Origin: an uncultured Lentisphaerota bacterium
Lineage (GTDB): Bacteria; Verrucomicrobiota; Kiritimatiellia; RFP12; UBA1067
DNA: 64,000 nt
Reading direction: 5' to 3'
Assembly (NCBI GenBank): GCA_900320225.1
Contig: ONRL01000038.1
Coordinates: 5,698-69,697, forward strand
Shown here one piece after another: positions 2,444 through 58,757 of the stretch (positions within the stretch are counted from its first letter, which is position 1; each line of letters opens with the position of its first letter). The position numbers and the translations under genes are program-made. A model generated the notes under the pieces. It saw only the letters and a program-made list of their open reading frames with translations, was not told the DNA's origin and searched no databases.

Positions 2444-2472
2444 AGTGTATCAAATCGATGGGTGGTGCGCAA
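2444..2472 (-). promoter_or_regulatory. Putative promoter of NYN copy I (TTGCGC-N17-TACACT on minus strand)
   Basis: The reverse complement reads TTGCGC (2472..2467), a 17-nt spacer, then TACACT (2449..2444). The same architecture occurs upstream of the other NYN copies and of rpmE, smc, the tRNA clusters and the U32 gene. Confidence 0.5.
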
Positions 2473-2490
2473 GGGGGGATTTGGGAGAAA

Positions 2491-3372
2491 ATGAAATTCA
2501 CTTACACATATCGCTCATCCGACGGCGAGCGGCACACGGCCGAGATCGAGGCCGAGAGCCGCGACGCGGCTTTCGCGAAGGTGCGCAGCGAGCTGGGCAT
2601 CAAGCCGATCAAGGTGGTGGCGGCAGGAGATAATGCGACTGATGAAGGAAGCGGCAAGAGTGCCGCTTCCCCGAGGTGGGGAGTCGTTCCTGTCATCGCT
2701 CTTATCGTTACCATCGCTCTTATCGCTCTGGTCGTGTGGTGGTGGTTGAGCGGTCGCGGGGCGACCGCTCCCGCGCAAGAGCCGGCCGCCTACACGGTGA
2801 ACACGCCCCAAGGACCTGTTACGCTGCGCGTGGCCGAGCCATTGCCCCGCCAGATGATACCGGGCAACCGACAGCGGATTGAGGACGACCGCGACAATGT
2901 CTTCACAAACGCCGCAGAAAGGCTGTTGGCGCGTTTCGCAGAACCGGGGCGGGCTGTTGCCGCACCTAAGGGCGAGCAGCCCACGGAGGCCGATTTTGCG
3001 GCCTGCCTGCGCGAGCCGATCCGCGTGGCGTCGAGCGAACTCACCGAGCACATCGACCTTAAGCGGATCGTGTCGGGCATGAAGCGCGAGATGCGGGCGT
3101 ACATCGCCGGAGGCGGTACCATCGACGGTTATCTCGCCGAGCTGGAGAAGCGCCAGAAGCTGGAGGTTTCGTACCGCGAGCGCGCGGAGCAGAAGCTCAA
3201 CGCCATTTTGAACGGGCAAGATGCCCGTTCTCCCAGCGGGCGAGATTCCTTGAAGGCCGCCTACGCCTACTGGCTCAAGGCCAACGCGCAACTTCAGGCG
3301 ATGGGCATCTACCCGCTCGCCCTGCCAGATACTCTCCGCTCCTACCAGATGAGCCTCGACATCGAGGAATAG
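2491..3372 (+). CDS. Family-B bitopic envelope protein (copy I)
   Basis: Start MKFTYTYRSSDGERHTAEIEAESRDAAFAKVRSELGIKPIKV, then one hydrophobic helix (VVPVIALIVTIALIALVVWWWL) and a C-terminal domain ending ..QAMGIYPLALPDTLRSYQMSLDIEE. Close paralog of 11154..12266 and more distant paralog of 8864..9673. Confidence 0.85.
   Translation: MKFTYTYRSSDGERHTAEIEAESRDAAFAKVRSELGIKPIKVVAAGDNATDEGSGKSAASPRWGVVPVIALIVTIALIALVVWWWLSGRGATAPAQEPAAYTVNTPQGPVTLRVAEPLPRQMIPGNRQRIEDDRDNVFTNAAERLLARFAEPGRAVAAPKGEQPTEADFAACLREPIRVASSELTEHIDLKRIVSGMKREMRAYIAGGGTIDGYLAELEKRQKLEVSYRERAEQKLNAILNGQDARSPSGRDSLKAAYAYWLKANAQLQAMGIYPLALPDTLRSYQMSLDIEE
2647..2670. repeat. H1 hairpin repeat (GGAAGCGGCA-AGAG-TGCCGCTTCC)
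   Basis: Perfect 10-bp inverted repeat with a 4-nt loop followed by CCGAG. Lies inside the family-B copy I coding sequence (encodes ..GSGKSAASPR..). Confidence 0.9.
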
Positions 3373-3946: not shown

Positions 3947-3975
3947 GCGAAAACAGTTGCTGACCTGTTTTGACA
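3947..3975. repeat. Degenerate copy of the CAAAACAGGTC/GACCTGTTTTG palindrome
   Basis: GCGAAAACAGTTGCTGACCTGTTTTGACA. The right arm is intact and the left arm degenerate. Lies between the convergent toxin remnant and the ATPase gene. Confidence 0.6.
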
Positions 3976-3983
3976 ATTTGTTC

Positions 3984-5201
3984 TCAAGCCCCTAAAGCGG
4001 CCAAGGGAACGGCGTAGAAGCCGTTGCCGAAGCGCAACGTCTTGTTGCCGGAATAGAGGACGATTCCGGTAAAAGGCGTCTTGGCGATGTTTTCCGCAAA
4101 CCACTTGAGATGGCGGAAGTCATCCGTAGAAGCCTGTCCCGCCTTGACCTCAACGCCGAGCAATGCGCCGTCCTTTCGCTCGACGATGAAATCGATTTCG
4201 CGCTTGCGGTTGTCCCTGTAGTGCGAGAGGCTGTACCCGCCTTCAGCCTCGGAAATCGCGGCCAGTTGCTGATACACCCATGTCTCGACGAGTTTGCCAC
4301 TCCTGTTCTCGTCCATGTACACGTCGTCCTCGTTCCACCCAAGGACGTTTGCCGCGAGCGCGGAATCCGTTGCAATCCACTTTTCGCGTTTTCCGATCAT
4401 GTCGTAGTCGCTCTTCGTCCACGCGGACACGCTGTCGAAAATGTAAAGGGCCTTCATTGCCTCCATGTAGTTCTGCGCCGTCACCTTCGATATCGCAGCC
4501 TTTGACGCCAGTTCCTCCATTGCGAAGAATTGCGCCGTGTGGGCAAGAAGCCACAATGCGACGGAACGCAGTTCAGGAAGCTTGCGGATTTCCGTCACGT
4601 CCTTGACATCTTTCTCAAGAAGATCGTCCAGATAGACTTCGAACCACTCGCTCCTGGCGTCTGGCGAGTAGGACTGGATTTCCGGGTAGCCGCCGCGAAA
4701 AGCCGCGTGGATCAGGTCCCTTCGTGAAAAGTCACCGTAAAAGGAGTCGAAGTCCCCCGCAAAGGCCCGGCGAAGGAAAAACGGCGGATGGCCGTAGATT
4801 TCCCCTAGGGACAGCGTCCGAAGCCGCACTCTGCCGAGGCGACCGGCGAGCGAGTCCTTGACGGCCTTTGCAAACCGGAGATTCGCGCTTCCAGTGAGGA
4901 GATACTGGCCCGGCGACTGGTCCTTGTCCACGACCATTTTGATCGAATCAAGGACGTCGGGCACCTTTTGCACCTCATCTATGACAATCGACTCGCCATT
5001 GGCATGCTGCACAAATCCGTTCGGGTCGCTTTGGGCGACACCCCGCACCAACTTGTCGTCGAACGTATATCTCCTCGCATGGGGCAAGTCAACCATTCCG
5101 GCAAGGGTCGTCTTGCCGGACTGCCTCGCACCGGTGAGATTCACGCCACGGCGAACCTTCATCATGGCGCTTAACCGAGATGTCTGCCATCGTTCAATCA
5201 T
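3984..5201 (-). CDS. AAA-family ATPase (AAA_14 + DUF4143-type)
   Basis: 405 aa. Walker A in ..LTGARQSGKTTLAG.. and Walker B-like ..ESIVIDEVQKVPD... The overall layout is typical of the widespread ATP-binding DUF4143 family. Confidence 0.85.
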   Translation of the reverse strand: MIERWQTSRLSAMMKVRRGVNLTGARQSGKTTLAGMVDLPHARRYTFDDKLVRGVAQSDPNGFVQHANGESIVIDEVQKVPDVLDSIKMVVDKDQSPGQYLLTGSANLRFAKAVKDSLAGRLGRVRLRTLSLGEIYGHPPFFLRRAFAGDFDSFYGDFSRRDLIHAAFRGGYPEIQSYSPDARSEWFEVYLDDLLEKDVKDVTEIRKLPELRSVALWLLAHTAQFFAMEELASKAAISKVTAQNYMEAMKALYIFDSVSAWTKSDYDMIGKREKWIATDSALAANVLGWNEDDVYMDENRSGKLVETWVYQQLAAISEAEGGYSLSHYRDNRKREIDFIVERKDGALLGVEVKAGQASTDDFRHLKWFAENIAKTPFTGIVLYSGNKTLRFGNGFYAVPLAALGA

Positions 5202-6887: not shown

Positions 6888-6908
6888 GTAAGGCGTAATG
6901 CCCGAGGG

Positions 6909-9798: not shown

Positions 9799-9850
9799 CC
9801 TTCCTATGCGTTCACAGCCGCTTCGATGCGCTTGCGGCCGCAAAGGAGCA

Positions 9851-10522
9851 TCAAGGCGTCTGGGACGGTGGCATCCATGCCACCGGACATTGGATGGTTC
9901 TGCCGTCTGCTGTCACGAACGAATCGGGCAGACGGCAGCCTGCGGCAAAGCCCTGAGGGATGTTACGGTAAAAGGTTGCGTAGCGGCGAAGTTCGTTGCA
10001 GATGCTCATCTGCGGGTTGAAGACAAGGACAGGAACCCCTATATGGTAACGGACGGTCTTCACTATGGGTGCGAGATCGGTGTCGCCAGAGATGAGAACA
10101 AGGCTGTCGGCGCGTCGTTCGTAAGCATCGCGCAGCATTGCATCAGCGATGTTTACATCTGTCATCTTTTCCGTGATACGAAGCACCTTGATGCGACCGT
10201 CGCTCCGTCTTTTGCCGCAGGACGTACAGGGTTCACGGACAGGGGTGAGAAGTTCGGCCTGTTCGCGATAGCGGCCTTCGATGATTTCGACGAGAGGACG
10301 ATTGGCAAGCGCTTTGAGATATTGTTCCTGCCGTTGGGCGTGGTGCTGGTTCGGGGTTTTGTCGATTACGCGAGACGTGAAGTACTTGATGGCGACGATA
10401 ACATGGTCTGGTTTGAGAAGTTTGGAGGAGAAGGTCTCAAGATCAAGCCATTTGTTGTCGGTACCGCGAAGTTGTCCATAGTAGAGGTTACTGGCATCGA
10501 TGTAGATGATTGTGTTTTTCAT
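9851..10522 (-). CDS. NYN-domain putative ribonuclease, copy II
   Basis: Start taken at MKNTIIYIDASNLYYG (10522). VLISGDTDLAPIVKTVRYHIGVPVLVFNP motif present. The listed ORF extends upstream through a duplicated, decayed NYN 5' fragment. Confidence 0.85.
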   Translation of the reverse strand: MKNTIIYIDASNLYYGQLRGTDNKWLDLETFSSKLLKPDHVIVAIKYFTSRVIDKTPNQHHAQRQEQYLKALANRPLVEIIEGRYREQAELLTPVREPCTSCGKRRSDGRIKVLRITEKMTDVNIADAMLRDAYERRADSLVLISGDTDLAPIVKTVRYHIGVPVLVFNPQMSICNELRRYATFYRNIPQGFAAGCRLPDSFVTADGRTIQCPVAWMPPSQTP

Positions 10523-10622
10523 TGATTCCTCCTGAAAGTGCAAGAGCCGGGCTTGCGCCCGGCTCCGCGCCGCCTCCCCGAAAGTCGGCGGGTTAAACGC
10601 CCCGTCATTGGGGGCAGTTGGA

Positions 10623-10651
10623 AGTATACCAAAGATAGTGGCGGCGCGCAA
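10623..10651 (-). promoter_or_regulatory. Putative promoter of NYN copy II (TTGCGC-N17-TATACT, minus strand)
   Basis: The reverse complement reads TTGCGC (10651..10646), a 17-nt spacer, then TATACT (10628..10623). A GAGCCGGGC-GCAA-GCCCGGCTC hairpin and a GGAGG RBS follow. Confidence 0.5.
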
Positions 10652-10675
10652 GGGGCCACTCGAAAAATTCGGCAA

Positions 10676-10723
10676 TCCATCGATATATGCAATAGATTTC
10701 TTTATCGTATCCTGAAACTGCAA
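10676..10723 (-). pseudogene. Decayed 5' fragment of a NYN gene
   Basis: Encodes ..QFQDTIKKSIAYIDG, matching the copy I N-terminus (QFLDTMKKTIAYIDG), but the ATG is mutated to ATA and homology stops after 16 codons. Confidence 0.6.
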
Positions 10724-10810
10724 AGGCCTCTCGCCTATCGGCTTGAGGCCCTGCCCCGCATCGGCAGAGCCTCACGGTCGGATATCAACCCTTTAACGGG
10801 TTCGGACGGT

Positions 10811-10839
10811 AGTGTACCACATCGCAGGGCATGGTGCAA
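10811..10839 (-). promoter_or_regulatory. Orphaned NYN-type promoter (TTGCAC-N17-TACACT, minus strand)
   Basis: Same box sequences and spacing as at 12285..12313. It now drives only the NYN 5' fragment. Confidence 0.4.
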
Positions 10840-10903
10840 GGGGGTGTGCAAAAAAAGAGGAAGTTCACACCAGGTTAGAATTTCATTTTTTTCAATTACC
10901 CCC

Positions 10904-10932
10904 TTGCGGACGGGCAAGGCATGTGGTATCAT
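10904..10932 (+). promoter_or_regulatory. Putative promoter upstream of the Abi remnant (TTGCGG-N17-TATCAT)
   Basis: CCCCCTTGCGG..TGGTATCAT, the same pattern as the promoters upstream of rpmE and the tRNA cluster. Confidence 0.4.
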
Positions 10933-11000
10933 ATCGTCATCTCAACCGCCTCGCCTCTCTGCCGTAAGGCATGATGCGCGTATTTGGCGGTTACTTTTTT

Positions 11001-11149
11001 ATGCCGACACCAAACCGTACCAATCCATTGAACAGCAAATCGCTTTGCTGGAGAGTCGCGGTTTGGCGATTGATGTCGACGCAGATGTCGCCAAGCGGTT
11101 CCTTGCGAACGTGAACTATTACCGCCAAAACAGGTCTGACCTGTTTTGA
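11001..11149 (+). pseudogene. Abi (abortive-infection, Abi_2/AbiD-F-like) gene remnant
   Basis: The frame encodes ..TKPYQSIEQQIALLESRGLAIDVDADVAKRFLANVNYYR.., the characteristic N-terminus of Abi_2 proteins. It is out of frame with ATG 11001 and is cut off after ~45 codons where the palindrome at 11126 begins. Confidence 0.6.
11126..11148. repeat. REP-like palindrome CAAAACAGGTC-T-GACCTGTTTTG
   Basis: Perfect 11-bp arms. Lies between the convergent Abi remnant and family-B copy III. Confidence 0.9.
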
Positions 11150-11153
11150 CACT

Positions 11154-12266
11154 TTACTCGTCGATGTCGAGGGACATCTGGTAGGAGCGGAGGGCGTCGG
11201 GCAGGGCGAGCGGGTAGATGCCCATCGCCTGAAGCTGCGCGTTGGCTTTCAGCCAGTAGGCGTAGGCGGCCTTCAGGGAATCTCGCCCACTGGGAGAACG
11301 GGTATCTTTCTCGTTCAACATGTCGTTGAGCTTCTGCTCCGCGCGCTCGCGGTACGAAACCTCCAGCTTCTGGCGCTTCTCCAGCTCGGCGAGATACTGC
11401 TCAACCGTGCCGCCTCCGGCGATGTAGGCCCGCAGTTCGCGCTTCATGCCGGTGACGATGCGTTTGAGGTCAACCACCTCCGTGAAGTCCGTCGAGGCGA
11501 TGCGGATCGGCTCGCGCAGGGCGGCCTCGAAATCGGCCGGTATCGGCCGCGCCGCATGTGAAGCGGCGAGAGCGCCGCTTCCCCGAAGGGTACCGACGTT
11601 GGATGAAGCGCCGCCTCCCCGAGGGGAAGCCGACTCTCGGGGAAGCGACACTCCTGTCGCTTCACCCGGCGCGAGGGTCGCCGGTGGTGTCTCAAGAGTC
11701 GCGGGCGGCTGCCGCCCTGGCTCGGCATAGCGCGCGAGCCACCTCTCGGCCGCGAATTTGAACACGCCGTTGGTCGGTTGGGATTTCGCCTCGCTGGAAG
11801 AAAGGGCATCGCGCCCGTTCATCGCTCCTTCAATTCTTCGCCTGTCGCCCGGTATCATCTGGCGGGGTAATGGCTCGGCCACGCGCAGTGTCACCGGCCC
11901 CTGCGGGGTCGTGACCGTGATCGGCTGGTCGGAGTTGGCTGCGGGCAATTCGCCGTTCGGGCGTCGCATCCACCACACCACGCCGCCGAGGACGGCGGCG
12001 AAAAGAACAACGGCCGCGACGAGGAGATTGCGCTTCTTGAATGAAGCGGCGAGAGCGCCGCTTCCCCGAGGGGAGCCGCTATTCGGGGAAGCGGCACTCT
12101 TGCCGCTTCCTTCATCAGTCGCATTATCTCCTGCCGCCACCACCTTGATCGGCTTGATGCCAAGCTCGGTCCGTATCTTGGCAAACGCCGCGTCGCGGCT
12201 CTCGGCCTCGATCTCGGCCGTGTGCCGCTCACCATCGGACGAGCGGTATGTGTAGGTGAACTTCAT
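11154..12266 (-). CDS. Family-B bitopic envelope protein (copy III, expanded by hairpin repeats)
   Basis: Start at MKFTYTYRSSDGERHTAEIEAESRDAAFAKIRTELGIKPIKV. Ends ..QAMGIYPLALPDALRSYQMSLDIDE. Longer than copy I because of segments containing four H1 repeats. Confidence 0.85.
   Translation of the reverse strand: MKFTYTYRSSDGERHTAEIEAESRDAAFAKIRTELGIKPIKVVAAGDNATDEGSGKSAASPNSGSPRGSGALAASFKKRNLLVAAVVLFAAVLGGVVWWMRRPNGELPAANSDQPITVTTPQGPVTLRVAEPLPRQMIPGDRRRIEGAMNGRDALSSSEAKSQPTNGVFKFAAERWLARYAEPGRQPPATLETPPATLAPGEATGVSLPRESASPRGGGASSNVGTLRGSGALAASHAARPIPADFEAALREPIRIASTDFTEVVDLKRIVTGMKRELRAYIAGGGTVEQYLAELEKRQKLEVSYRERAEQKLNDMLNEKDTRSPSGRDSLKAAYAYWLKANAQLQAMGIYPLALPDALRSYQMSLDIDE
11560..11581. 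repeat. H1 hairpin repeat
   Basis: GAAGCGGCG-AGAG-CGCCGCTTC followed by CCCGAAG, inside the family-B copy III CDS. Confidence 0.85.
11642..11663. repeat. H1-like hairpin repeat (variant arms)
   Basis: GAAGCGACA-CTCC-TGTCGCTTC preceded by CTCGGG, inside the family-B copy III CDS. Confidence 0.75.
12043..12064. repeat. H1 hairpin repeat
   Basis: GAAGCGGCG-AGAG-CGCCGCTTC followed by CCCGAGG, inside the family-B copy III CDS. Confidence 0.85.
12087..12110. repeat. H1 hairpin repeat (opposite orientation)
   Basis: GGAAGCGGCA-CTCT-TGCCGCTTCC preceded by TTCGGG. It is the orthologous copy of the repeat at 2647..2670. Confidence 0.9.
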
Positions 12267-12284
12267 TTTCTCACACATGCCCTC

Positions 12285-12313
12285 TTGCACCATGCCCTAC
12301 GATGTGGTACACT
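12285..12313 (+). promoter_or_regulatory. Putative promoter of NYN copy III (TTGCAC-N17-TACACT)
   Basis: TTGCAC 12285..12290 and TACACT 12308..12313. It lies 18 nt from the divergent family-B start codon (12266). Confidence 0.5.
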
Positions 12314-12414
12314 ACAACCGAACCCCTTGATGGGTTGCTAACCACCCGCTGAGCTACGGCAATGCGGTGCAGAGCCGGGCGTAAGTCCGGCTCTTGCCTT
12401 TTCGGGAAACAGTT

Positions 12415-13074
12415 ATGCAAAAGAAACAGACAATCTTCTACATAGATGGCTTCAACCTTTATCATGGTCTGTTGAAAGATACGCCCTCTCGCCAGTGGCT
12501 CGATCTTGAGCGTTTCGCAACATCCCTGCTCCCGCGTCTGGAAGAACATGATGTCGTCGCCATCAAATACTTCACGGCCCGAATCAAGTATAATCCCGCA
12601 GACCCGCAAGCCGCATTCAACCAAGACCGCTATCTTGATGTCCTTGGGACTTTCCCCAAGATCAAGATCATCGAAGGCTTCTACAAACGATTTCGGGTCA
12701 AGCTTCCTTTCGCGGCAGAACCATGCAAGAGCTGCGATAAGATGCCCTACGGTCTCGTATACCGCACGGTCGAGAAACGTTCTGACGTAAACCTTGCCAC
12801 TGAAATGATGGCCGATGTCATTCGCCGTGCCGCCGATACATTTGTCGTCATAAGCGGAGACGTTGATTTCGCCGCACCGCTTTGCTTCATCAGACATGAG
12901 GCTAAGTTGAGAACACTGGTCTTTAATCCACATGAAAAAGTGTGTGAGGAGCTTCGTCGCTTCACATCCTACTACAGGAACATCCCTCGCGACCTGCCGA
13001 CGCGGTGCCAGCTGCCGGACGTGGTGCCGCTTCCCAACGGCCGCACGATCCACCGCCCGCCCGCGTGGGCGTAG
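12415..13074 (+). CDS. NYN-domain putative ribonuclease, copy III
   Basis: ATG at 12415 (MQKKQTIFYIDGFNLYHG). VVISGDVDFAAPLCFIRHEAKLRTLVFNP motif present. The C-terminal ..RCQLPDVVPLPNGRTIHRPPAWA is identical to copy I. Confidence 0.85.
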   Translation: MQKKQTIFYIDGFNLYHGLLKDTPSRQWLDLERFATSLLPRLEEHDVVAIKYFTARIKYNPADPQAAFNQDRYLDVLGTFPKIKIIEGFYKRFRVKLPFAAEPCKSCDKMPYGLVYRTVEKRSDVNLATEMMADVIRRAADTFVVISGDVDFAAPLCFIRHEAKLRTLVFNPHEKVCEELRRFTSYYRNIPRDLPTRCQLPDVVPLPNGRTIHRPPAWA

Positions 13075-13110
13075 CCGACGACGCCGGTATGTGCAGGTGG
13101 AGCCCACGCC

Positions 13111-13935
13111 CTACTTCTTCGTGTTTGGCGGCGGAATCGTGATCGGGTTCGTCGGCCCGCGCTCCTTGTCGGCGCGTACCTCATCCCATATCTTCTGCTG
13201 AATGGCATCCTTGGGCTTTTCCGCCCAGCCTTCCTTGCATGCCTGCCGGTAAGAGACATAGATGGCAGGTGTGACGCCGATTGGCTCTAGGTACGGTGCC
13301 ATGCGCGCCACAACGTCCATCGAGAGGCGTTCGTCCGAGATGTGGTCAAGGTCTTCTGGCTTGTACATGCCACTGGTGAGCGAGCCGGGGAAGTTCGAAC
13401 TCATCGCGCCGCACAGGAGGGCGAACCCCCGCGACATCTCCTTGAGGACTCGTGCCTTGAAAAAGGCGGGGGCGGATCCCCTACCCGTCTTCAACGGAGC
13501 AACGTTCAGGACAGTCCACCTGTTCTCGGGGGCCGCCACAAGGGAAGGGAATGTGGGATCGTCAATAATGTAAAGAGAGGCATTCCCCTCAATTTTCGGG
13601 GACGGGAATGAGAACGTGCCGTCCCTGAGCGTGATCTGCAGGCGGGTTTCCTTTTTGAGGTACTCAATTGATCGCTCTAGGACTTCCTTCTCGGCGGCCT
13701 TCTGACAATTGACGATGGTAATCTCACCTTTCAGCGAGTCTTTCCGGACAAGCGTTCCTCCGGTACGCTCGTATTTCCGCTTCATCAGCCACTCCATACG
13801 GATCTTGCGCTCGGCCTCGTTGGTCGGCTTCGTGCGTGGATCGTACGGCTTCGCCTCGTCCGCCACCGCGCCGGAGGCCAAGCAGAATGCCACCGCGCAG
13901 AGCATCCATTTCCCGACTGTCATGTATCCGTTCAT
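13111..13935 (-). CDS. Secreted protein, family S270 (copy III)
   Basis: 274 aa with a signal peptide (MLCAVAFCLASGAVA). Contains SLVAAPENRWTVLNVAPL and ends KERGPTNPITIPPPNTKK. Confidence 0.8.
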   Translation of the reverse strand: MNGYMTVGKWMLCAVAFCLASGAVADEAKPYDPRTKPTNEAERKIRMEWLMKRKYERTGGTLVRKDSLKGEITIVNCQKAAEKEVLERSIEYLKKETRLQITLRDGTFSFPSPKIEGNASLYIIDDPTFPSLVAAPENRWTVLNVAPLKTGRGSAPAFFKARVLKEMSRGFALLCGAMSSNFPGSLTSGMYKPEDLDHISDERLSMDVVARMAPYLEPIGVTPAIYVSYRQACKEGWAEKPKDAIQQKIWDEVRADKERGPTNPITIPPPNTKK

Positions 13936-14924
13936 TTCTTGTTGTTCCTTTCTTCTTTTTCCTTCATGAGGAGTTCCATGCGTTTCCTGGTGATGGGACC
14001 GACCTTGAGCGGCGCGATTCCCTTTTCAGCCAGCAGGATGTTGGCCGCCTTGATGAAGTCCTCCACATCGTCGTCCGTCACGCCTTCCTTCTGCCGGTAT
14101 TCACTGAGCTCGTTCTGGAGGAGACGCTTGAAATTGTGCAATTCCTGCATTTCACGCCGGGTATCGAGCATGATCTGCTCGATGTCCTCGCCGCGGTCCA
14201 GCGCCGCCTTCAAGTTGATCTTGGTGTCACGGACGGCTTTCTTCAGTTCACGGGCGTATTCGTCGTCTTCGGGGCCGATGACGATCGGGGTCTCAAGGGA
14301 CTTGAGGAACTCCGCCTTGAAGCTCCCGTTGTAGCGAGGATCGCCCACCAACCCTTCTCCGGGTGTCATCGTGAGGAAGCACGCAATCTCGTTCTCACAG
14401 TGATGCTCGAATATCTCGTACTTGGAGACGCTGGTGCGCGACACGTCATTTGTCACCTCGCCCCTGATCCGGTGCAGGCGTCCGGACGGCAACTTGATGT
14501 AGCCGTTGACGATTTCGCCCACCTTTTCGGGACGGGCGTTCGGGTCAACCTTCACAGGCTTGGGTTCGACGGGTTTTGCCACGACGTTGGTTTCTGCCGG
14601 TTTCGGGCGCGGCTTCGGTGTGGCCGCCGGCTTCGGAGCGGCTTGTTTCTTTTGCACGGGTTTGGGAGCGGGAGTTGGCTGTGGCTTGGGCGACAGGAAG
14701 AACCATGCCACGCAGGCAATTATGACAACGACGGCAGCGGCGACGGCGCCCTTTATCCACGCGGGCCTGCGTGATGGAGACGCGACGTGCCCGCCCTCTG
14801 TGACGGAACGCGGGACGATCCCGCGCGCGCGGCACGAGGCAACAGCCGCCGCGCGGTCGGCGGCATCAATGACCTCTGTCGCAGGAGATCCGTCTTGCCT
14901 TCGGTATGTTACAGTAAACTTCAT
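13932..14924 (-). CDS. Family-A bitopic envelope protein (copy III)
   Basis: MKFTVTYRRQDGSPATEVIDAADRAAAVASCRARGIVPRSV head, TM helix (AVAAAVVVIIACVAWFFL) and a Pro/Lys-rich linker. The C-terminal domain is collinear with 7042..8058. ATGA overlap with the S270 gene. Confidence 0.85.
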   Translation of the reverse strand: MKFTVTYRRQDGSPATEVIDAADRAAAVASCRARGIVPRSVTEGGHVASPSRRPAWIKGAVAAAVVVIIACVAWFFLSPKPQPTPAPKPVQKKQAAPKPAATPKPRPKPAETNVVAKPVEPKPVKVDPNARPEKVGEIVNGYIKLPSGRLHRIRGEVTNDVSRTSVSKYEIFEHHCENEIACFLTMTPGEGLVGDPRYNGSFKAEFLKSLETPIVIGPEDDEYARELKKAVRDTKINLKAALDRGEDIEQIMLDTRREMQELHNFKRLLQNELSEYRQKEGVTDDDVEDFIKAANILLAEKGIAPLKVGPITRKRMELLMKEKEERNNKK

Positions 14925-14966
14925 GGCAATCCTCCCGTCTGAAAACGAGACTCTTGGGCGGTTGTG

Positions 14967-14997
14967 AAAAAGCCCACCCGCAATGTGCGGGCGGGCC
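14967..14997 (-). terminator. Hairpin plus T-run between the PEP-CTERM gene and the family-A gene (cassette III)
   Basis: The minus strand reads GCCCGCCCGCA-CATT-GCGGGTGGGC followed by TTTTT. Same relative position as 6909..6945. Confidence 0.5.
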
Positions 14998-15061
14998 TTT
15001 CTCTTAGTGGAACACGCAACTCGCGCATTCCAGAGCGGGTTGGCAACCCGTTCTATTAGAC

Positions 15062-15532
15062 TTACTTCTGCTTGCGGCGCAACGCGAGCATGCCAGCGCC
15101 CACGAGGAGTAGAAGCCCGCTCGTCGGCTCGGGAATGTCACCGCCGCCCCAGTTGCTGGCGTTCTGCGTAGCGGAGGCCATGTTGCCAAAACCAATGGCT
15201 GCAACATCAGAAGCCTGGGCAATTGCACTAACAGACTGCGAGGTGAATGTTTTGCCGTTATCCGTAATGGTAAAGTAGAAGTTATACTCATTACCCGCTA
15301 CAAATGCAGCATCTGAGAATTCAGTATTTGCAGCCTTAACCGCACCACTAGCGGCAGTAGCAGCTGCCGAGAATGACGCGACCTCAGCGCAATACAAAGT
15401 GACCGCACCAGACCACTTCGTTGTACCGTCGGAGCCATAGATGTTGGCAGCCGACCACTTAAAGGACGCCGCATTGGCTACTGTTGCAACCAAGGCAAGC
15501 GCCATAACAATCATTACTTTTTTCATTTTCAT
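15062..15532 (-). CDS. PEP-CTERM sorting-domain protein (copy III)
   Basis: Start MKMKKVMIVMALALVATVANA. C-terminus IPEPTSGLLLLVGAGMLALRRKQK. Shares SFKWSAANIYGSDGTTKWSGAVTLYC with copy II. Confidence 0.9.
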   Translation of the reverse strand: MKMKKVMIVMALALVATVANAASFKWSAANIYGSDGTTKWSGAVTLYCAEVASFSAAATAASGAVKAANTEFSDAAFVAGNEYNFYFTITDNGKTFTSQSVSAIAQASDVAAIGFGNMASATQNASNWGGGDIPEPTSGLLLLVGAGMLALRRKQK

Positions 15533-15580
15533 TTTCCTTTTTTTCCTATGTGTCACACAATGTGACACATTTGAAATTGT

Positions 15581-16242
15581 TTAGAGTTCCGGAGCTGGGA
15601 AACGAAGTGACTGGCTCGTGCTCTTGCCATACACCCAAAGGCCCTGGCCCGGCGCGAAGGAGACACCTTCAACCTTTTCAAAATCCTCATCCGCCCAGCA
15701 AGGTTCATCTGCAGTCCAGTCATTCCATGTATAGGTGCAACCGTCAACGGTACGTCCAGCAGCATCAAGGACATCCCCCTCGGGGATGATGTCATCAAGA
15801 TCAAGCGCAACAGGGAACGGATTACCCGTCGGGGTACCACCATTACGAAGCGTCACGATCACATCAGCGATACCAACCTGCCCACAGGAACGCAGACCTT
15901 GCGTGGTGGTTTTGCCATACACCCAAAGACCTTGGCCCGGCGCGAATGAGACGCCTTCAACTTTTTCAAAATCCTCATCCGCCCAGCAAGGTTCATCTGC
16001 AGTCCAGTCATTCCATGTATAGGTGCAACCGTCAACGGTACGTCCAGCAGCATCAAGGACATCGGGACAAGCGAATCCAACGAAATCGTGTTACCAGACA
16101 TCGGCGCGAACTGCGGAGTGACCATCGTGGCTCCGTTACGCAGATCACTCTGACCATAGCCGACCGTGTTGGCGGATTCAATGCCTTCGCCGAACGCGGC
16201 GAATCCTGCGGCAACCGCCGCTGCAAACATGAGTTTCTTCAT
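15581..16242 (-). pseudogene. DUP-family secreted protein (copy III), frameshifted
   Basis: ORF 15859..16242 (MKKLMFAAAVAAGFAAFG.. signal peptide) loses homology after ..SLDSLVP near 16061..16067. The homologous sequence (DVLDAAGRTVDGCTYTWNDWTADEPCW..) continues in another frame into ORF 15581..15922. Confidence 0.6.
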
Positions 16243-16263
16243 TTTTCGTTTCCTTTTCCGGGC

Positions 16264-16288
16264 GGTCGCGCAGGAGCGCGACCCTCCC
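16264..16288. repeat. H2 hairpin repeat (reverse orientation)
   Basis: GGTCGCGC-AGGA-GCGCGACC followed by CTCCC, in the 5' leader of the DUP copy III gene. Confidence 0.85.
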
Positions 16289-16418
16289 TTTTTTGCTCTG
16301 GGGGGCAGAGTGAAGAAATACGCTCTGTGTTGGAGAGGAGGGAAATTGGCCGAATCTGCTCCGGTGGCGAAGCCGGTGCGGGTAAAATATCCGCTTCACC
16401 ATAAAGAAAGGACAACAA

Positions 16419-17426
16419 ATGAAAGTGATACCAACCATCAAGATGGTTCTGGAAACCTATCCGAAGTTCGCCGCCATCGAGCGGATGAGGATGGAGAAGC
16501 CCTGCGAGAAGACCGTGGCGAGCGCCGTGAGCGGCACGCGGCGCCTGTGCGAGATCGGCGGCATCTCGCTCGACGAGCCGATCACCGTGTTCAACCGGAA
16601 GCAGCTCGAGCGCATCCTCGACCTCGCCCGGCTTTCGGAACTGAAGCCGATCTCCGTGTGGAGCTACCTCTACTCCCTGCGCAAGCTCTTCGCGAAATGG
16701 ACGCATCGCTACTACGCCGACAAGAAGTGGACGCTCCCGCAACTCGAGATGCCGTCGTGCCAGCGCCAGTCGCCGCGCTACATCCGCCCCGACACCACCA
16801 CCCTCGCCAAGGTCAAGGCGTGGTATCGCGGCCTTGAGGCGCGTTCGGATCCGCGCGAGTGGATCCTCGCCACGCTCATGCTGGAGTTCGCCATGCGCAA
16901 CGGCGACGCGGAACGCCTGCGCTGGTCGGATTTCCGTCCGGCAAGACAGTGCAATCACGGTGCGGACCAAAATGAGATTACGGTTCGTATGAAATCCAAT
17001 GACGGCAACGCGCGCATGGTTCTGTGCTACACGCCGCACAAGACGCGGCTCTCGTCGGGGCGTGTCGTCGCGTGGCCGGTCCATCCCGACATCTGGACGC
17101 GCCTGTGCGCCTACCACGACGGCGGCAGGTTCCGGAACAAGCGGAATGGCTGGGCGAAGAACGAAAGCCGGGATGCGCCGCTTGTCGTTCCGTGCGCGCG
17201 CGACGTGTACGTCCGACTTAACCGGGAATTGCGCACGAGCAAGATCTTCACCGGCTCGAAGGGCTGCTACGAGCTGCGCAAGATCTGCATTGACCACATC
17301 TACCAGAAGTTCGGGGCGGAGATGGCGTCGTCCATTAGCGGCGACGACATCCGCACGGTGATGCGCTACTACGCCGACCCGAGCGCAGTGAGCGTGGAGG
17401 GCGTGCGCGTGGTGGATCTGCTGTAG
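16419..17426 (+). CDS. Tyrosine-type site-specific recombinase/integrase
   Basis: 335 aa. ..LEFAMRNGDAERLRWSDF.. (box I Arg), ..TPHKTRLSSGRVV.. (Lys hairpin), ..YELRKICIDHIYQKFG.. and ..IRTVMRYYADPS (C-terminal Tyr) fit the phage-integrase family pattern. Confidence 0.7.
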   Translation: MKVIPTIKMVLETYPKFAAIERMRMEKPCEKTVASAVSGTRRLCEIGGISLDEPITVFNRKQLERILDLARLSELKPISVWSYLYSLRKLFAKWTHRYYADKKWTLPQLEMPSCQRQSPRYIRPDTTTLAKVKAWYRGLEARSDPREWILATLMLEFAMRNGDAERLRWSDFRPARQCNHGADQNEITVRMKSNDGNARMVLCYTPHKTRLSSGRVVAWPVHPDIWTRLCAYHDGGRFRNKRNGWAKNESRDAPLVVPCARDVYVRLNRELRTSKIFTGSKGCYELRKICIDHIYQKFGAEMASSISGDDIRTVMRYYADPSAVSVEGVRVVDLL

Positions 17427-17455
17427 TTGCAAAACAGGTCTGACCTGTTTTGCAA
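17427..17455. repeat. REP-like palindrome TTGCAAAACAGGTC-T-GACCTGTTTTGCAA
   Basis: Perfect 14-bp arms, immediately after the integrase stop codon. Confidence 0.9.
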
Positions 17456-17457
17456 GA

Positions 17458-17510
17458 ATTATCACGTGGATGTGAAGATTATCACGTGCGCGTGATAATT
17501 GTGTGATAAT
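17458..17510. promoter_or_regulatory. Cluster of TTATCAC / GTGATAA half-sites (operator-like) upstream of the RAYT gene
   Basis: ATTATCACGTG occurs twice (17458, 17478) and GTGATAAT twice (17492, 17503). This includes the inverted repeat ATTATCACG-TGCG-CGTGATAAT. GGTATACT -10 at ~17549..17556; ATG at 17595. Confidence 0.45.
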
Positions 17511-17594
17511 CATGTGATTTTCATGTGAAGATTTTCATGCGGCCTTTCGGTATACTGCTGGCGTCTCTAACAGCCAAAAGAAAGGACAAGTAGT

Positions 17595-18725
17595 ATGTCG
17601 AATTCAAACAGTAGAAACAAGGAAGTTGAAACGGTTCACCATCTCACGAGCCGCATAGCGCATCGGGTCTACTTTCTCAAGGAATGTGAACGAAACGATT
17701 TTCTCGAGATCGTGCGCCGAGCTGCGGATTTCGCTGGCATTAAACTTCTAGGTTGGTGTGTCATGTCGAATCATTTCCATCTCCTTGTTCATTTGCCCGA
17801 GCGAGTCGAGGTCTGTGAGTCGGAGGTCTTGAGACGTTACGGCGTACTGAAGGGGAGGGCGGCAGCCGAAGAAATTGAAAAGTCATTCGTGACATGGCGT
17901 AAGGATGAGGTCAATGGTGAGGCGAGGGTCACGGCGTGGCTTGAATCGCAACGTCGCCGCATGTATGACGTTGGAATCTTCATGAAGATCGTCAAGCAAT
18001 GGTTCACGGAGGAGTACAACAAGCGTAACGGCCACTGCGGTACGCTTTGGGAGGCCGTGTACCATGATCGAGTGGTGCCTTTTGAAATCAAGGCCATGTC
18101 AGAATGCCTTGGATACATTCATTTAAACCCGATTCGCGCGGCCGTGACGGACAGGTTTGACGGATATGCGTGGAGCAGTTATGCCGCGTTCTGCCGTGGG
18201 GACGAAGTTGCAATTGAGGGAATGCGCTTTATCTACGGGGAGGAATGTTCCGCCGAAGAAATGTCCCAGATGCATGAGGAACTCCTTGAGTGTCTGTTGG
18301 AGAAGGAGAAGTTGCGCCGTGCTGCCGAGATCGTCAGAAGGCGGGCGGCGGGGTATGAAATGCCGGCAGACCCGCTCACCACAGAGGCATACCTTCGTCA
18401 GGCTGCTATGCGACTTGAGGAGATTCGGCTTGAGTCAATGCGTTTGCGGGAGGAGAGGATGTTGCCCTTGTCGCGAGTGAAGAAGAGAGACCACCGTGAA
18501 CGAGAAGTCATTGCCGCTCTGACCTTGAATCCGAGTGCGGACGTGAAAGACCTCTCCAACTACCTTGCAATCCCTGTAAGAACGGCTTACGATTTACTTC
18601 AGAAAATGGAATCCAAAGGCCTTGTCATGCATACAGATCGTGGAGGTTTCTGGACAATGTTGCAAAACAGGTCAGACCTGTTTTGCCGGTTTGGGGACGC
18701 CGGGAAAATTGCAAAACAGGTCTGA
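17595..18725 (+). CDS. IS200-like Y1 transposase-domain protein (REP-associated tyrosine transposase-like) with C-terminal HTH-like extension
   Basis: HUH motif in ..CVMSNHFHLLVHLPE.. and the catalytic-Tyr motif ..CLGYIHLNPIRAAV... The C-terminal ~70 aa (..LSNYLAIPVRTAYDLLQKMESKGLVMH..) look like a winged HTH. The ORF ends inside the downstream palindromes. Confidence 0.8.
   Translation: MSNSNSRNKEVETVHHLTSRIAHRVYFLKECERNDFLEIVRRAADFAGIKLLGWCVMSNHFHLLVHLPERVEVCESEVLRRYGVLKGRAAAEEIEKSFVTWRKDEVNGEARVTAWLESQRRRMYDVGIFMKIVKQWFTEEYNKRNGHCGTLWEAVYHDRVVPFEIKAMSECLGYIHLNPIRAAVTDRFDGYAWSSYAAFCRGDEVAIEGMRFIYGEECSAEEMSQMHEELLECLLEKEKLRRAAEIVRRRAAGYEMPADPLTTEAYLRQAAMRLEEIRLESMRLREERMLPLSRVKKRDHREREVIAALTLNPSADVKDLSNYLAIPVRTAYDLLQKMESKGLVMHTDRGGFWTMLQNRSDLFCRFGDAGKIAKQV
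18662..18686. repeat. REP-like palindrome GCAAAACAGGTC-A-GACCTGTTTTGC
   Basis: Perfect arms, within the last codons of the RAYT ORF. Confidence 0.9.
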
Positions 18726-18737
18726 CCTGTTTTGCAA
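18709..18737. repeat. REP-like palindrome TTGCAAAACAGGTC-T-GACCTGTTTTGCAA
   Basis: Identical to 17427..17455 and 22 nt from the previous copy. Confidence 0.9.
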
Positions 18738-18935
18738 CTTTCGGCGGGGAAATATGGTATAATATGCCGCGTGACGAAGGTAGCGACAGACCCGTTTCTC
18801 GAAGTGACCGATCCCGGCGAGGCCATCGGGCTCTGGAGTCGGCCGGCCCGCTACGAGGTGAAGATCGCAGTACGGCAGGAACCGGTCAGGCCTGATTGCC
18901 GGAGGAGGAGCGGGTTTCGAAATGGAGTGTTTCAC

Positions 18936-20018
18936 ATGAAAGAGTATGGAAACGGATGTTTCTTGAAACGCGCAGGACGAGTTGCCGCAGTTGCGTGTGG
19001 CATTGTCTTGCTTTTGGTTGTCGCCGGATGCGCGACGGCGCCGGAGCTGTCGCTCTGGCGCGACGAAGCGCCGGCGAAGAAGGCGTTGCTGGAGTACGTG
19101 GAGGCCGTGACGGACACAGGATCGCCCGACTACATCCCCCCGGCGGCGCGCGTGGCCGTGTTCGACTTCGACGGCACGCTCTTCTGCGAAACCGATCCCA
19201 CCTACTTCGACTGGTTGCTGTTCGAGCACCGCGTGCTGGACGATCCGTCCTACAAACCCACGGGCGAGCAGCGCCAGGCCGCCATCGCCTCGCGCACGCG
19301 CACGTCCATCCCGGGCCTCACGCCCGACCGCGAACGGCTGATCGTGGAGGTCTACAAGGGGATGACGCTTGACGAGTTCGCCGCCTACGTGCGCGCGTTC
19401 ATGGAGGAGCCGCAGCCCGGCTTCACGGGACTGAAGCGCGGCGCGGCGTACTACCTGCCGATGCTGGAGGTCGTGAAACTGCTGATGGCGAAGGATTTCC
19501 GCGTGTACGTGTGCAGCGGGTCGGACCGTCTGCTCCTGCGCGAGGTGGTGCCGCCCGTGATCGACTTGCCGCCGGACCGGCTCATCGGGTCCGACAGCGC
19601 GATCGTCGCGCGCGGGCAGAACGGACGCGACGGCCTCGCCTACACGTACCGTCAGGACGACGCGCTCGTGATGGGCGGGAAGAGCGTGATCAAGAACCTG
19701 CAGATGAACAAGGTGCCTGCGATCATCCGCGAAATCGGCGTGCAGCCCGTGCTCGCCTTCGGCAACAGCTTCTCCGACGCGAGCATGCTCAACTACACGC
19801 TCTCGCGCAACCCGCACAAGGCGCTCGGGTTCATGCTCCTCTGCGACGACACCGAACGCGAGTACGGCAATCTGGCGAAGGCGCGGAAGGTGCGCGAGGC
19901 CTGCGGGCCGAACGGCTGGATTCCGGTCTCCATGAAGGACGATTGGACGACGATCTATGGTGACGGCGTGAAGCGGAAGGAAGCGGCAGGAGTGCCGCTT
20001 CCCCGAGAAAAGAAGTGA
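18936..20018 (+). CDS. HAD-superfamily hydrolase lipoprotein
   Basis: Start at MKEYGNGCFLKRAGRVAAVACGIVLLLVVAGC (lipobox). HAD motif I VAVFDFDGTLF, motif II-like VYVCSGSD and motif IV-like AFGNSFSDASM. The listed ORF start 18732 lies in the RAYT flank. Confidence 0.75.
   Translation: MKEYGNGCFLKRAGRVAAVACGIVLLLVVAGCATAPELSLWRDEAPAKKALLEYVEAVTDTGSPDYIPPAARVAVFDFDGTLFCETDPTYFDWLLFEHRVLDDPSYKPTGEQRQAAIASRTRTSIPGLTPDRERLIVEVYKGMTLDEFAAYVRAFMEEPQPGFTGLKRGAAYYLPMLEVVKLLMAKDFRVYVCSGSDRLLLREVVPPVIDLPPDRLIGSDSAIVARGQNGRDGLAYTYRQDDALVMGGKSVIKNLQMNKVPAIIREIGVQPVLAFGNSFSDASMLNYTLSRNPHKALGFMLLCDDTEREYGNLAKARKVREACGPNGWIPVSMKDDWTTIYGDGVKRKEAAGVPLPREKK
19979..20002. repeat. H1 hairpin repeat
   Basis: GGAAGCGGCA-GGAG-TGCCGCTTCC followed by CCGAG. 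It forms the last codons (..EAAGVPLPREKK*) of the HAD lipoprotein ORF. Confidence 0.9.
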
Positions 20019-28228: not shown

Positions 28229-28230
28229 GT

Positions 28231-28256
28231 GTCAAAACAGGTCGACCTGTTTTGAC
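28231..28256. repeat. REP-like palindrome GTCAAAACAGGTC/GACCTGTTTTGAC
   Basis: Perfect 13-bp arms with no central nucleotide. Confidence 0.9.
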
Positions 28257-28367
28257 AGTTTTTGATCTCGCGCGCATGAAACGGCAGGAAGAAATGTTGC
28301 AAAAAGGTGTCAGACGGCACACGTGCCGCGGCCTAACACAGATGAATTGGTAAACAGGAGACGAGCC

Positions 28368-58136: not shown

Positions 58137-58757
58137 ATGCCACGATACGACATGAGAATCAGCGAGAAGAATCTGCTGCGGTTGGCAGAGTGCGCTCGCA
58201 ACGGGCGGGTGGTCGTGTTCGACACGGAGACAACCGGTTGCACCACGTATGACGAAATCTGCCAGATCGCCGCGGTCGAGTACGTGAACGGCAAGCTTTC
58301 GCGCACATTTGCGCGCTACATCTGCCCGACGTGCGAGATGAACCCGTTCGCGGAGATGGTGCACGGTCTGTCACTTGATTTCCTGCACGAACACGGCCTC
58401 GAACCGGAAGAGGCGATGCGGCAGTTCTTCGAGTTCGTGGGCGACGACGTGCTGCTCGTCGCGCACAACGCCACGTTCGACATGCGGATGGTCCGCCAGG
58501 AGTGCCGGAAGTTCGGCCTCGCGTTCGCGCCGCAGGACGTGGAGACGTGCGATACGCTCGCTCTCTCCCGCCGGCTGCGTCCGGACCTGCCCAGCCACAA
58601 GCTCTCGTACCTCATCGGCGCGCTGGATATCGACGGCGTCAACAGCCACGACGCCCTCGACGACGCCCTCGCCTGCGCCGGCGTTTTCTTCACGTTTCTT
58701 AAACAGGTTGCAAAACAGGAACAGCGCAGAGCCACGGACTGCGGATTTTTGGTATAA
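58137..58757 (+). CDS. DEDDh 3'-5' exonuclease (DnaQ / DNA polymerase III epsilon-like)
   Basis: Exo I ..VVFDTETTG.., Exo II ..LVAHNATFDMRM.. and Exo III ..HDALDDALA... Confidence 0.85.
   Translation: MPRYDMRISEKNLLRLAECARNGRVVVFDTETTGCTTYDEICQIAAVEYVNGKLSRTFARYICPTCEMNPFAEMVHGLSLDFLHEHGLEPEEAMRQFFEFVGDDVLLVAHNATFDMRMVRQECRKFGLAFAPQDVETCDTLALSRRLRPDLPSHKLSYLIGALDIDGVNSHDALDDALACAGVFFTFLKQVAKQEQRRATDCGFLV

Follow-up and report, generated by a model that had tools for sequence, protein, structure and literature searches.

A RAYT-like Y1 HUH nuclease with a winged-helix tail and its palindromic repeat in rumen and gut Kiritimatiellia: a probable REPtron/TIRtron-type system

A 64,000-nt stretch of DNA from an uncultured Lentisphaerota bacterium (contig ONRL01000038.1; the whole stretch is hereafter called the window) carries a gene for a protein with the features of a Y1 HUH nuclease, and this gene is bracketed by copies of a palindrome that recurs elsewhere in the window. 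Pairs formed by a REP-associated tyrosine transposase (RAYT) and its repetitive extragenic palindromes (REPs) are well known in Proteobacteria. The question raised by this locus is whether the nuclease and the palindrome form a pair of this kind, as an earlier reading made from the letters of the window (the sequence-only reading) had proposed, or whether the palindrome is the end of a transposon, an operator or a transcription terminator. We favour, with a probability of about 0.62, a REPtron/TIRtron-type system of rumen/gut Kiritimatiellia. We propose that the gene encodes a single-copy class-2 Y1 HUH single-stranded DNA (ssDNA) nuclease of the RAYT/TnpA-REP type, predicted from its sequence and from a structural model, to which a helical linker and a winged helix are appended.

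The nuclease and the palindromes around its gene

The window protein belongs to class 2 of the Y1 HUH proteins (RAYT-type, Y-x-x-x-N-P). Both hallmarks on which the sequence-only reading had relied were located: SNHFHLLV spans residues 58-65 and contains the HUH tetrad N59-H60-F61-H62 (nt 17769-17780; codons 17772-17774 for H60 and 17778-17780 for H62), and GYIHLNPIRA contains Y174-IHLNP (nt 18114-18131, the Tyr174 codon being nt 18114-18116). Further motifs are W152-E153 and W193-S194-S195. In an alignment of 40 homologs, NHFH, WE, YIHLNP and WSS are all invariant, and the final ~20 residues, which are encoded by palindromes, are without conservation. The invariance of the HUH, Tyr and WSS motifs would argue for a functioning nuclease. 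In the nuclease of locus L004, the Tyr motif is YINLNP. Together, NHFH / WE / YIHLNP / SS agree with the key motifs of subclass 2.1 (Table 1 of PMC6006769), so that the protein, judged by its motifs, appears to fit subclass 2.1, or group 1 of Bertels.

Profile searches agree with this placement among Y1 proteins. The Pfam model Y1_Tnp, which the sequence-only reading had suggested running, covers residues 16-74 with 28.3 bits (cut-off 23), the top NCBIfam model is NF047646 REP_Tyr_transpos with 55.2 bits, and the NCBIfam model transpos_IS200 (NF033573) reaches 16.1 bits for a cut-off of 55. The C-terminal extension with an HTH-like end, also claimed beforehand, is real. An AlphaFold2 model built from the 40-homolog alignment (pLDDT 86, pTM 0.79) has a helical linker at residues ~204-311 followed by a winged helix at ~317-355 with the topology H-H-H-E-E. 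Residues 302-347 match the TrmB winged helix in Pfam with 26.2 bits (cut-off 25.6), and the tail helix-turn-helix of the protein and its relatives matches TrmB, HTH_24, FeoC, MarR_2 and HTH_IclR. The tail of the model resembles the winged-helix structures of MarR, CggR and FeoC. A search of the PDB by sequence gave no significant match, and a search with the model gave 4er8_A as the top hit (E = 7e-4, TM-score 0.68 normalised to the target), the structure of the E. coli RAYT in complex with a REP hairpin; ranks 2-30 after 4ER8 have the HUH/Y1 fold and include the TnpA proteins of ISDra2 and IS608.

Among 5.8 billion proteins searched, 573 relatives were found. The best 120 of these are 54-100% identical to the window protein and mostly ~355-360 residues long, and among these 120, few of which carry names, the named sources are Kiritimatiellia. 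HMMER over 1.84 billion representatives gave ~25 full-length clusters at 50% identity. A wider family of 1,117 clusters (50% identity, E <= 1e-10) has the N-terminal ~215 residues in common, and six of eight sampled members of it carry different C-terminal winged helices (Fic-like_C, PadR).

In the window the palindrome has the consensus TTGCAAAACAGGTC-W-GACCTGTTTTGCAA. Searches with a 14-mer at up to two mismatches gave 11 matches in the window against 0.26 in shuffled windows, and a 23-mer gave 4 against 0.00; no copy, at up to three mismatches, occurs in a separate 573 kb of DNA from related Kiritimatiellia of the rumen, chosen irrespective of the repeat. The copies reported by the sequence-only reading at 17427, 18709 and 11126, the degenerate copy at 3947 and the half-site at 58708 lie where it had put them, and the two others start slightly earlier, at 18660 instead of 18662 and at 28230 instead of 28231 (Table 1). 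As ssDNA, the perfect window copies are predicted to form stems of 10-13 bp and loops of 3 or 4 nt (-9.2 to -13.6 kcal/mol, z about -6). The 17427 copy, 1 nt past the stop of a 335-aa open reading frame (ORF) and 140 nt ahead of the nuclease ATG, has a 13-bp stem and a 3-nt loop (-13.6 kcal/mol, z = -6.2), and the 18660/18709 doublet folds as a single long hairpin (-35.5 kcal/mol). The decayed 3947 copy folds no better than shuffled sequence, and the 58708 half-site could be a relic or have arisen by chance.

Several ORFs, including the nuclease and a supposed Abi remnant, had been said to terminate inside the repeat. This holds for the nuclease ORF, whose stop codon comes from the centre of the 18709 copy (GTC-TGA-C), and for the plus-strand ORF 10538..11149, whose TGA is part of the 11126 copy (right arm); the stops of the 335-aa ORF (TAG 17424-17426) and the 621-aa ORF (TAA 28226-28228) fall 1-2 nt short of a copy. 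The Abi label did not find support, ORF 10538..11149 having no match in Pfam or NCBIfam.

Table 1. Features of the window, with the flanking palindromes of four distant homologs
Feature	Position	Strand	Description
RAYT-like Y1 HUH nuclease gene	17595..18725	+	376 aa; ORF list and Pfam
C-terminal winged helix-turn-helix segment	18474..18659	+	residues ~294-355; TrmB, HTH_24, FeoC; AlphaFold2; structure matches
Conserved 5' region	17457..17555	+	inverted and direct repeats, -10-like box; kept upstream of the L036 homolog
Upstream palindrome	17427..17455	.	TTGCAAAACAGGTC-T-GACCTGTTTTGCAA; perfect, 14-nt arms, central T
First downstream palindrome	18660..18688	.	central A, 12-nt perfect arms; ORF reads through as LQNRSDLFC
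Doublet linker	18689..18708	.	20 nt, CGGTTTGGGGACGCCGGGAAAA-like; akin to the RUG10619 doublet linker
Second downstream palindrome	18709..18737	.	perfect, 14-nt arms, central T
Solo copy	11126..11148	.	11-nt arms; between convergent ORFs 10538..11149 (+) and 11154..12293 (-)
Solo copy	28230..28257	.	TGTCAAAACAGGTC abutting GACCTGTTTTGACA; 14-nt arms, no central base; 2 nt past the 621-aa ORF stop
Decayed copy	3947..3976	.	GCGAAAACAGTTGC-T-GACCTGTTTTGACAA; adjoins the 3' end of the AAA_14/DUF4143 gene 3984..5201 (-)
Half-site	58708..58719	+	TTGCAAAACAGG, 12 nt; within the 3' end of an RNase T-like gene
L076 (protein P0101), flanking palindrome			AATATTGAAAAT-AGGTC-W-GACC...
L080 (protein P0103), flanking palindrome			GTAGAAAGCAGGTC-T-GACCTGTTTTCTAC
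L182 (protein P0118), flanking palindrome			TGTCAAASTAGGTC-A-GACCTASTTTGACA
L184 (protein P0038), flanking palindrome			AAACATCAAAAAGTAGGTC-T-GACCTACTTTTTGATGTTT

The repeat across lineages and inside genes

The bracketing of the gene, one palindrome upstream and two downstream in the window, is repeated in relatives. In nine lineages out of nine, with proteins 50-100% identical, the nuclease gene is bracketed by a lineage-specific palindrome; the bracketed loci are the window, L036, L037, L060, L004, L042/L070 and, for four more distant homologs fetched with their surroundings, L076, L080, L182 and L184. With imperfect copies allowed, L036, L037, L060, L004 and L042/L070 have one or two copies upstream and one across the stop codon. 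The centre GGTC-W-GACC is identical in all nine lineages, and the change beside it is a paired one, CAGGTC/GACCTG becoming TAGGTC/GACCTA in L182 and L184. About one third of 118 full-length homologs have a C-terminal Val, 15 of them ending in K-Q/E-V, as expected if the palindrome centre supplies GTC and then the stop TGA; the DNA of the window, L004 and L076 shows this GTC-TGA stop. Taken with the class-2 signature and the 4ER8 match, the covariation of the palindrome with the lineage bears out the RAYT/REP-type architecture that had been proposed from the letters.

Two of these loci call for a remark on assembly. L042 starts with the palindrome and L070 ends ~115 nt beyond it, with identical flanking sequence, so that one gene is apparently split over two contigs of the same metagenome-assembled genome (MAG). 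L060, labelled Alistipes onderdonkii and also carrying the nuclease gene, and L063, labelled Muribaculaceae, combine 66-67% G+C with a Kiritimatiellia-type core palindrome and are probably mis-binned contigs of public assemblies.

The repeat is dispersed well beyond the gene. A scan for its 21-nt core, with one genome per species, found 75 loci, ~60 of which come from ~25 rumen/gut Kiritimatiellia MAGs, the rest being single chance or terminator-like matches in other phyla. The genomes hold 14 (JAZLJP), 8 (RUG10619), 6 (RGIG6720), 4, 4, 4, 3 and then 1-2 copies, a range of 1-14 that refers to exact cores in species representatives, degenerate copies and the window's own genome lying outside the count. 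Arm subfamilies differ by genome: (A)TGCG and TGAG in JAZLJP, GAG and TGTC in RUG10619, (T)TGAT in RGIG6720, TGGG in RUG12478, TTGC and TGTC in the window. The dispersed subfamily is the same as the one flanking the gene in both JAZLJP and RUG10619. Doublets, which the sequence-only reading had proposed to look for as REPIN-like pairs, have their centres 48-51 nt apart at the nuclease gene of L036, of L037 and of the window itself, and stand, with a conserved ~21-nt linker (TACCGTGCTGCGGGGAAAACC in L036 and L022), at three loci of RUG10619. In this last genome, a ~185-nt module with the inverted repeats ATTGTTCACAAAT / ATTTGTGAACAAT adjoins palindromes at L036 ~1390-1575 and L017 ~5360-5545 (86% identity) and may be a larger composite or a unit resembling a miniature inverted-repeat transposable element. 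Intergenic copies lie mostly ~0-40 nt from a stop codon, between tandem, convergent and divergent genes; these positions were classed with a crude caller based on G+C at third codon positions (GC3) that over-extends ORFs in G+C-rich DNA, and are a rough statement only, the intragenic copies having been individually re-checked with Pfam.

The arms behave as those of a hairpin. Over the copies the consensus is TG-NN-AAAACAGGTC-W-GACCTGTTTT-N'N'-CA. In 67 distinct Kiritimatiellia copies, which were selected on the 10 innermost nt of either arm and on nothing further out, the four arm positions that follow are complementary in 63, 63, 62 and 52 copies (20-39 in shuffles), with 3-6 pair types at each position. 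Arm positions that vary freely and yet remain complementary fit a requirement for a hairpin, not for an operator. Furthermore, the arms pair perfectly over 17-26 nt, with locus-specific outer parts, in 15 of 68 copies, for about 1 expected by chance. The central pair is always A:T, the plus strand having 43 T and 34 A; as a marker of the strand it led to no conclusion, given this 43:34 ratio and the different central bases of the orthologous copies in L059 and L071. A copy in L045 (358-400) has a tandem duplication of one arm (AAAACAGGTC-T-GACCTGTTTT-T-GACCTGTTTT-CTCAA), as if it had slipped or been half repeated.

At least seven copies lie in frame within real genes. The palindrome has a stop codon in one of its six combinations of frame and orientation, and this single frame is the one that ends the nuclease gene. 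In L023, a surface-protein gene, a 1,484-aa ORF with an FGE-sulfatase domain, reads through a copy, and the sole gap in a colinear stretch with its L076 homolog is of 32-33 nt, the whole palindrome GTTGATAAAACAGGTCAGACCTGTTTTATCAAC, adding 11 residues. A HemN-like radical-SAM gene has an in-frame copy in L059 and L071, and its ortholog clusters divide into 37 filled (...RVPLKQWKTGQTCFPLF-EFTV) and 57 empty (...KDALAPLLDENT-EFTV). The L059 protein is 5 residues longer than its close orthologs; the HemN and NocN structures, tried as length rulers, had suggested no net insertion and were misleading. The HemN-like loop is an insertion hot spot. In other orthologs (P0368, P0374-P0376, P0384, P0387) the loop that bears the palindrome shows tandem TRPYPTLSDP-type expansions, with 35-55 residues vs 24. 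Two GT4 glycosyltransferases have in-frame copies in inter-domain linkers, in different frames, which indicates independent events; a TPR protein has another. In L004 (891-911) the palindrome is in frame within the nuclease gene itself (...YGEVC-ENRSDLFS-QMEACH...), in a variable loop past the WSS motif. Such in-frame copies, together with presence and absence between orthologs, argue against a pure terminator or operator role.

The solo copy at 28230 is identical in seven assemblies of the species. Attempts to establish its presence or absence in relatives were uninformative: an 87% identical relative (P0122) has an intergenic gap of 62 nt vs 139 nt, and in L181 the downstream gene is a different one. 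Another protein, P0123 (L178-L180, compared with window 26363-28400), shares only 68% identity with the 621-aa protein over its length, yet the 3' end of its gene and the DNA beyond it, palindrome included, do not differ from the window; this pattern suggests a mosaic or recombining allele of the species.

As to the rest of the window, its region at ~2-20 kb has a lower G+C content (0.54-0.60 vs 0.63-0.71 elsewhere) and many ORFs without a Pfam or NCBIfam match; three palindrome copies fall in the low-GC region 2000-20000. Horizontal transfer inferred from composition was set aside as the signal is inconsistent, the nuclease gene being poorer in G+C than its neighbours in the window and richer in L004. 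ORFs 2458..3372 and 11154..12293, on opposite strands, have ~290-nt 3' ends that are 90% identical (3079-3371 / 11153-11447, reverse complement), and just one of them has a palindrome after it; the homology stops exactly at the stop codons, which makes the pair uninformative on insertion. Genes for AAA_14 + DUF4143 ATPases recur beside the decayed copy (window 3984-5201, minus strand), next to a nuclease homolog (L076 8083-9414, also L077) and at the place of the nuclease gene (L083 455-1798), which may be a coincidence or mark a variable region. An Rfam scan gave tRNAs alone, and in a plasmid search all matches were below 25% identity.

Candidate explanations for the palindromes

In the favoured REPtron/TIRtron-type reading, the palindrome, once in ssDNA (e.g. 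at replication forks), would form a hairpin of 13-16 bp whose triloop is C-W-G. This hairpin, with its invariant centre GGTC-W-GACC, would be recognised by the enzyme, and Tyr174 and the HUH metal site would cut and rejoin the DNA at the hairpin foot. Whole palindromes, singly or as linker-joined doublets, would thus be placed at a low rate at new sites, mostly just 3' of genes and in some cases in frame within them. Low-rate mobilisation of its own palindrome would explain why the small subfamily of each genome matches the copies that flank its own gene. We infer that it is this protein, rather than another factor, that moves the repeat, in the disseminating role given to it by the sequence-only reading; a single-stranded substrate, the cleavage positions, and catalysis and mobilisation by the window protein are likewise predictions. 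The winged helix might serve autoregulation or targeting by binding double-stranded DNA, either at the palindrome or at a second inverted repeat upstream of the gene (ATTATCACG-N4-CGTGATAAT, described below).

Several results weigh against this reading. There is no GTAG-type tetranucleotide foot: base composition is flat at the 8 positions outside the arms on both sides, and GTAG is present solely within or at the end of the arms in L080, L182 and L184. Copy numbers are 1-2 orders of magnitude under those of classical REP/REPIN populations (typically >100 per genome), and L076, L080, L182 and L184 show only their two flanking copies in 12-21 kb. The 55.2 bits obtained with NF047646 remain below its equivalog cut-off of 80, the curated threshold for RAYTs. 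The motif set is that of subclass 2.1, which was reported without REP association, the Y1 survey of Quentin et al. having found no REP-like sequences nearby (PMC6006769). The junction DNA of the HemN-like gene is a replacement (+30, -3, -12 nt) and no clean paste. Finally, no copy was polymorphic within the species in the 7-8 assemblies compared, which gives no sign of current activity.

The HemN-like junction leads to a variant in which insertion of the hairpin core (21-29 nt) by a distinct Y1 system goes together with copying of the neighbouring target sequence by fold-back (template switch). There, the right outer arm aligns with native codons (CCC CTT CTC vs CCA CTG TTT), and the left outer arm is the reverse complement of the right one and has no native counterpart. 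Fold-back copying would yield an inverted target duplication instead of the usual direct one, and would account both for this arm pattern and for the 15 of 68 copies with long locus-specific arms. As it draws on a single locus and a Pro-Leu match, we hold this variant to be unlikely; if true, the element would be a recurrent source of short in-frame peptides (KTGQTCF, KQVRPVF, NRSDLF) in host proteins.

A different possibility is that the whole cassette 17427-18737 is an autonomous IS200/IS605-like or TIRtron-type transposon, with the palindromes as its ends and the solo copies as footprints or abortive products, not as elements that a domesticated gene mobilises in trans. Indeed, the context of the nuclease gene differs in every lineage examined, its GC3 is 0.59 while that of its neighbours is 0.84-0.87, it sits at the edge of the low-GC region, and a relative (L083) is 91-95% identical over the downstream genes without having the nuclease gene there. 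Many homologs lie on contigs of 1-3 kb, as expected of repeats, and Bertels group 1 is the most insertion-sequence-like group of RAYTs (PMC5581495). The differing contexts, the GC3 contrast and the gene-less relative lead us to keep this explanation, rather unlikely as it is, in play. Within a species, on the other hand, the locus appears stable. The contig index lists the exact window protein in 74 blocks, and reading 22 of the contigs led to just one neighbourhood (shown for 8 loci), in the order 335-aa gene, nuclease gene, HAD, kinase-like ATPase, GH43. The three flanking palindromes are identical in eight assemblies of the species, P0101 and P0103 have one context each, and no fetched locus of the same genome holds a second nuclease gene copy. 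One fixed context per species is a RAYT-like pattern. Moreover, the inserted units observed are the bare palindrome (33 nt) and not gene-sized, the protein has Y-x-x-x-N-P and not the Y-x-x-x-Q of IS200 (the IS200 model giving 16 bits for 55), and the locus tables of the fetched loci show no adjacent tnpB. Nor is L083 a clean empty site, since its entire upstream region differs, the DNA diverging upstream of window position 18918 and an AAA_14/DUF4143 ATPase gene lying there. A metagenome scan for empty sites with the downstream HAD gene returned 80 loci, among which only L083 and L084 are true close orthologs.

The winged helix of MarR/TrmB type and the perfect two-fold symmetry of the palindrome, typical of dimer operators, raise the further prospect that the palindrome is a double-stranded operator for a dimeric winged-helix tail, serving autoregulation and a small regulon or titration sites, with another role or none for the HUH domain. 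In L076, L182 and L184 the upstream copy sits between the -10 box and the start codon, and in L060, L042 and L070 a box TGGTATAAT is within or abuts the right arm. Extended -10 boxes TGGTATAAT stand next to palindromes at 18755-18763 and 58749-58757 of the window, L060 5206-5218, L042 22-31 and L184 ~9740-9750, and copies may influence or carry promoters. We nevertheless consider an operator quite unlikely. The complementarity kept at variable arm positions is accounted for by selection for a hairpin and not by operator recognition; copies lie in frame in coding regions and at gene 3' ends, not at promoters; and the invariant HUH, Tyr and WSS motifs point to a functional nuclease. In the window, ~95 nt separate the upstream copy from the -10-like box that follows it (GGTATACT, ~17548-17555). 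A better positioned candidate is the unrelated inverted repeat ATTATCACG-N4-CGTGATAAT at 17478-17499, between the upstream palindrome and this box, which would be the better operator for the winged helix. It belongs to a segment (17457-17555) with two pairs of direct repeats (ATTATCACGTG x2, GATTTTCATG x2) that is conserved ahead of the L036 homolog, a protein of 72% identity.

The palindromes might also simply be bidirectional intrinsic terminators or 3' mRNA-stabilising hairpins, lying near a Y1 gene by accident; a bidirectional terminator role had been noted as an alternative in the sequence-only reading because of the A4/T4 tracts in the arms. This explanation agrees with the position of most intergenic copies ~0-40 nt from a stop codon, with the 28230 copy, which passes a terminator scan, and with the action of classical REPs at mRNA 3' ends. 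The evidence now makes it very improbable. A T-run follows the full stem in just one of six window copies (28230), and pairing continues past the T tract, which termination does not need. The at least seven copies within ORFs of real genes are incompatible with an obligatory terminator, and two insertions are demonstrable. An identical 21-nt core at many non-homologous loci of ~25 species is unlike terminator evolution, and association with the gene in 9/9 lineages cannot be incidental. Likewise, the repeat is not confined to convergent gene ends: copies stand also between tandem and divergent genes, by the rough calling. A secondary, exapted effect on transcripts is possible.

Significance and comparison with known systems

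A search of the literature library returned no paper linking Kiritimatiellae with REPs, IS200 or tyrosine transposases. What appears new here is the pairing in the phylum Kiritimatiellota and the winged-helix architecture of the protein, a pairing of this kind being in itself already known. The reach of REP/RAYT-type systems is extended to the PVC-related Kiritimatiellota, abundant uncultured bacteria of rumen and gut, and to the numerous long Y1 proteins that end in a winged helix (~1,100 clusters). With an invariant centre, freely co-varying arms and few copies, this nuclease and its repeat make a good pair for questions on hairpin recognition without a GTAG foot and on what the DNA-binding tail contributes. 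The 37 filled and 57 empty HemN-like clusters are natural events from which insertion rates and target rules could be derived. On the practical side, the repeat breaks metagenome assemblies and makes gene calls run on into spurious tails.

REPtrons, in which RAYT genes are flanked by REP/BIME sequences, are known from E. coli, Stenotrophomonas and Marinomonas (PMC3333891, PMC3479197, PMC8266576) and include an established group whose REPs are perfect palindromes (PMC8266576); the class-2 signature Y-x-x-x-N-P was defined in PMC6006769. The window system shares with them the HUH motif and single Tyr in this signature, the 4ER8 fold, an apparently single-copy gene bracketed by its own palindromes, which co-evolve with the protein, copies mostly just after genes and occasionally inside, and doublets. 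It differs by having neither GTAG nor another conserved foot, by a perfect palindrome with one unpaired central base, by 1-14 exact copies per genome instead of hundreds, by a protein twice as long (linker and winged helix) that scores under the RAYT equivalog cut-off, and by its host phylum, Kiritimatiellota. With REPINs (Bertels and Rainey 2011, PMC3116915) it has in common pairs ~50 nt apart with a conserved linker, forming one long hairpin at several loci; unlike in REPINs, singlets predominate and populations are tiny, and the inverted orientation of a REPIN is undefinable here since each unit is itself symmetric.

The IS200/IS605 transposases TnpA of IS608 and ISDra2 share the HUH/Y1 fold and recognise hairpins at element ends in ssDNA, an activity that we only propose for the window protein. 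In contrast to them, the latter has no Y-x-x-x-Q, its loci have no tnpB, it is not multi-copy in the contigs read, and its two flanks are the same perfect palindrome instead of distinct left and right ends.

Closest by motifs are the TIRYTs and subclass 2.1, which is equivalent to the group 1 RAYTs of Bertels (PMC6006769, PMC5581495), a group with ~12 occurrences of the flanking 16-mer on average (PMC5581495). Long proteins with NH[YF]H, W[EQ], Y[IV]HLNP and SS and with a C-terminal HTH are found on both sides; the window tail is MarR/TrmB/IclR-like, and not Bac_DnaA_C, HTH_23 or HTH_28. Unlike subclass 2.1 as surveyed, the present proteins, which would belong there by their motifs, are associated with a repeat in 9/9 lineages. 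TIRtrons were described by Di Nocera et al. (2013) as having self-complementary, moderately abundant repeats that overlap the gene 3' end (PMC3733652). The GGGGWSAS motif of many TIRs is absent from window-type flanks, and a resemblance may lie in the flanking inverted, potentially self-complementary repeats over the gene 3' end and in their moderate abundance. As subclass 2.1 contains most TIRYTs (PMC3733652), "TIRtron-like" is as apt a name for the Kiritimatiellia system as "REPtron".

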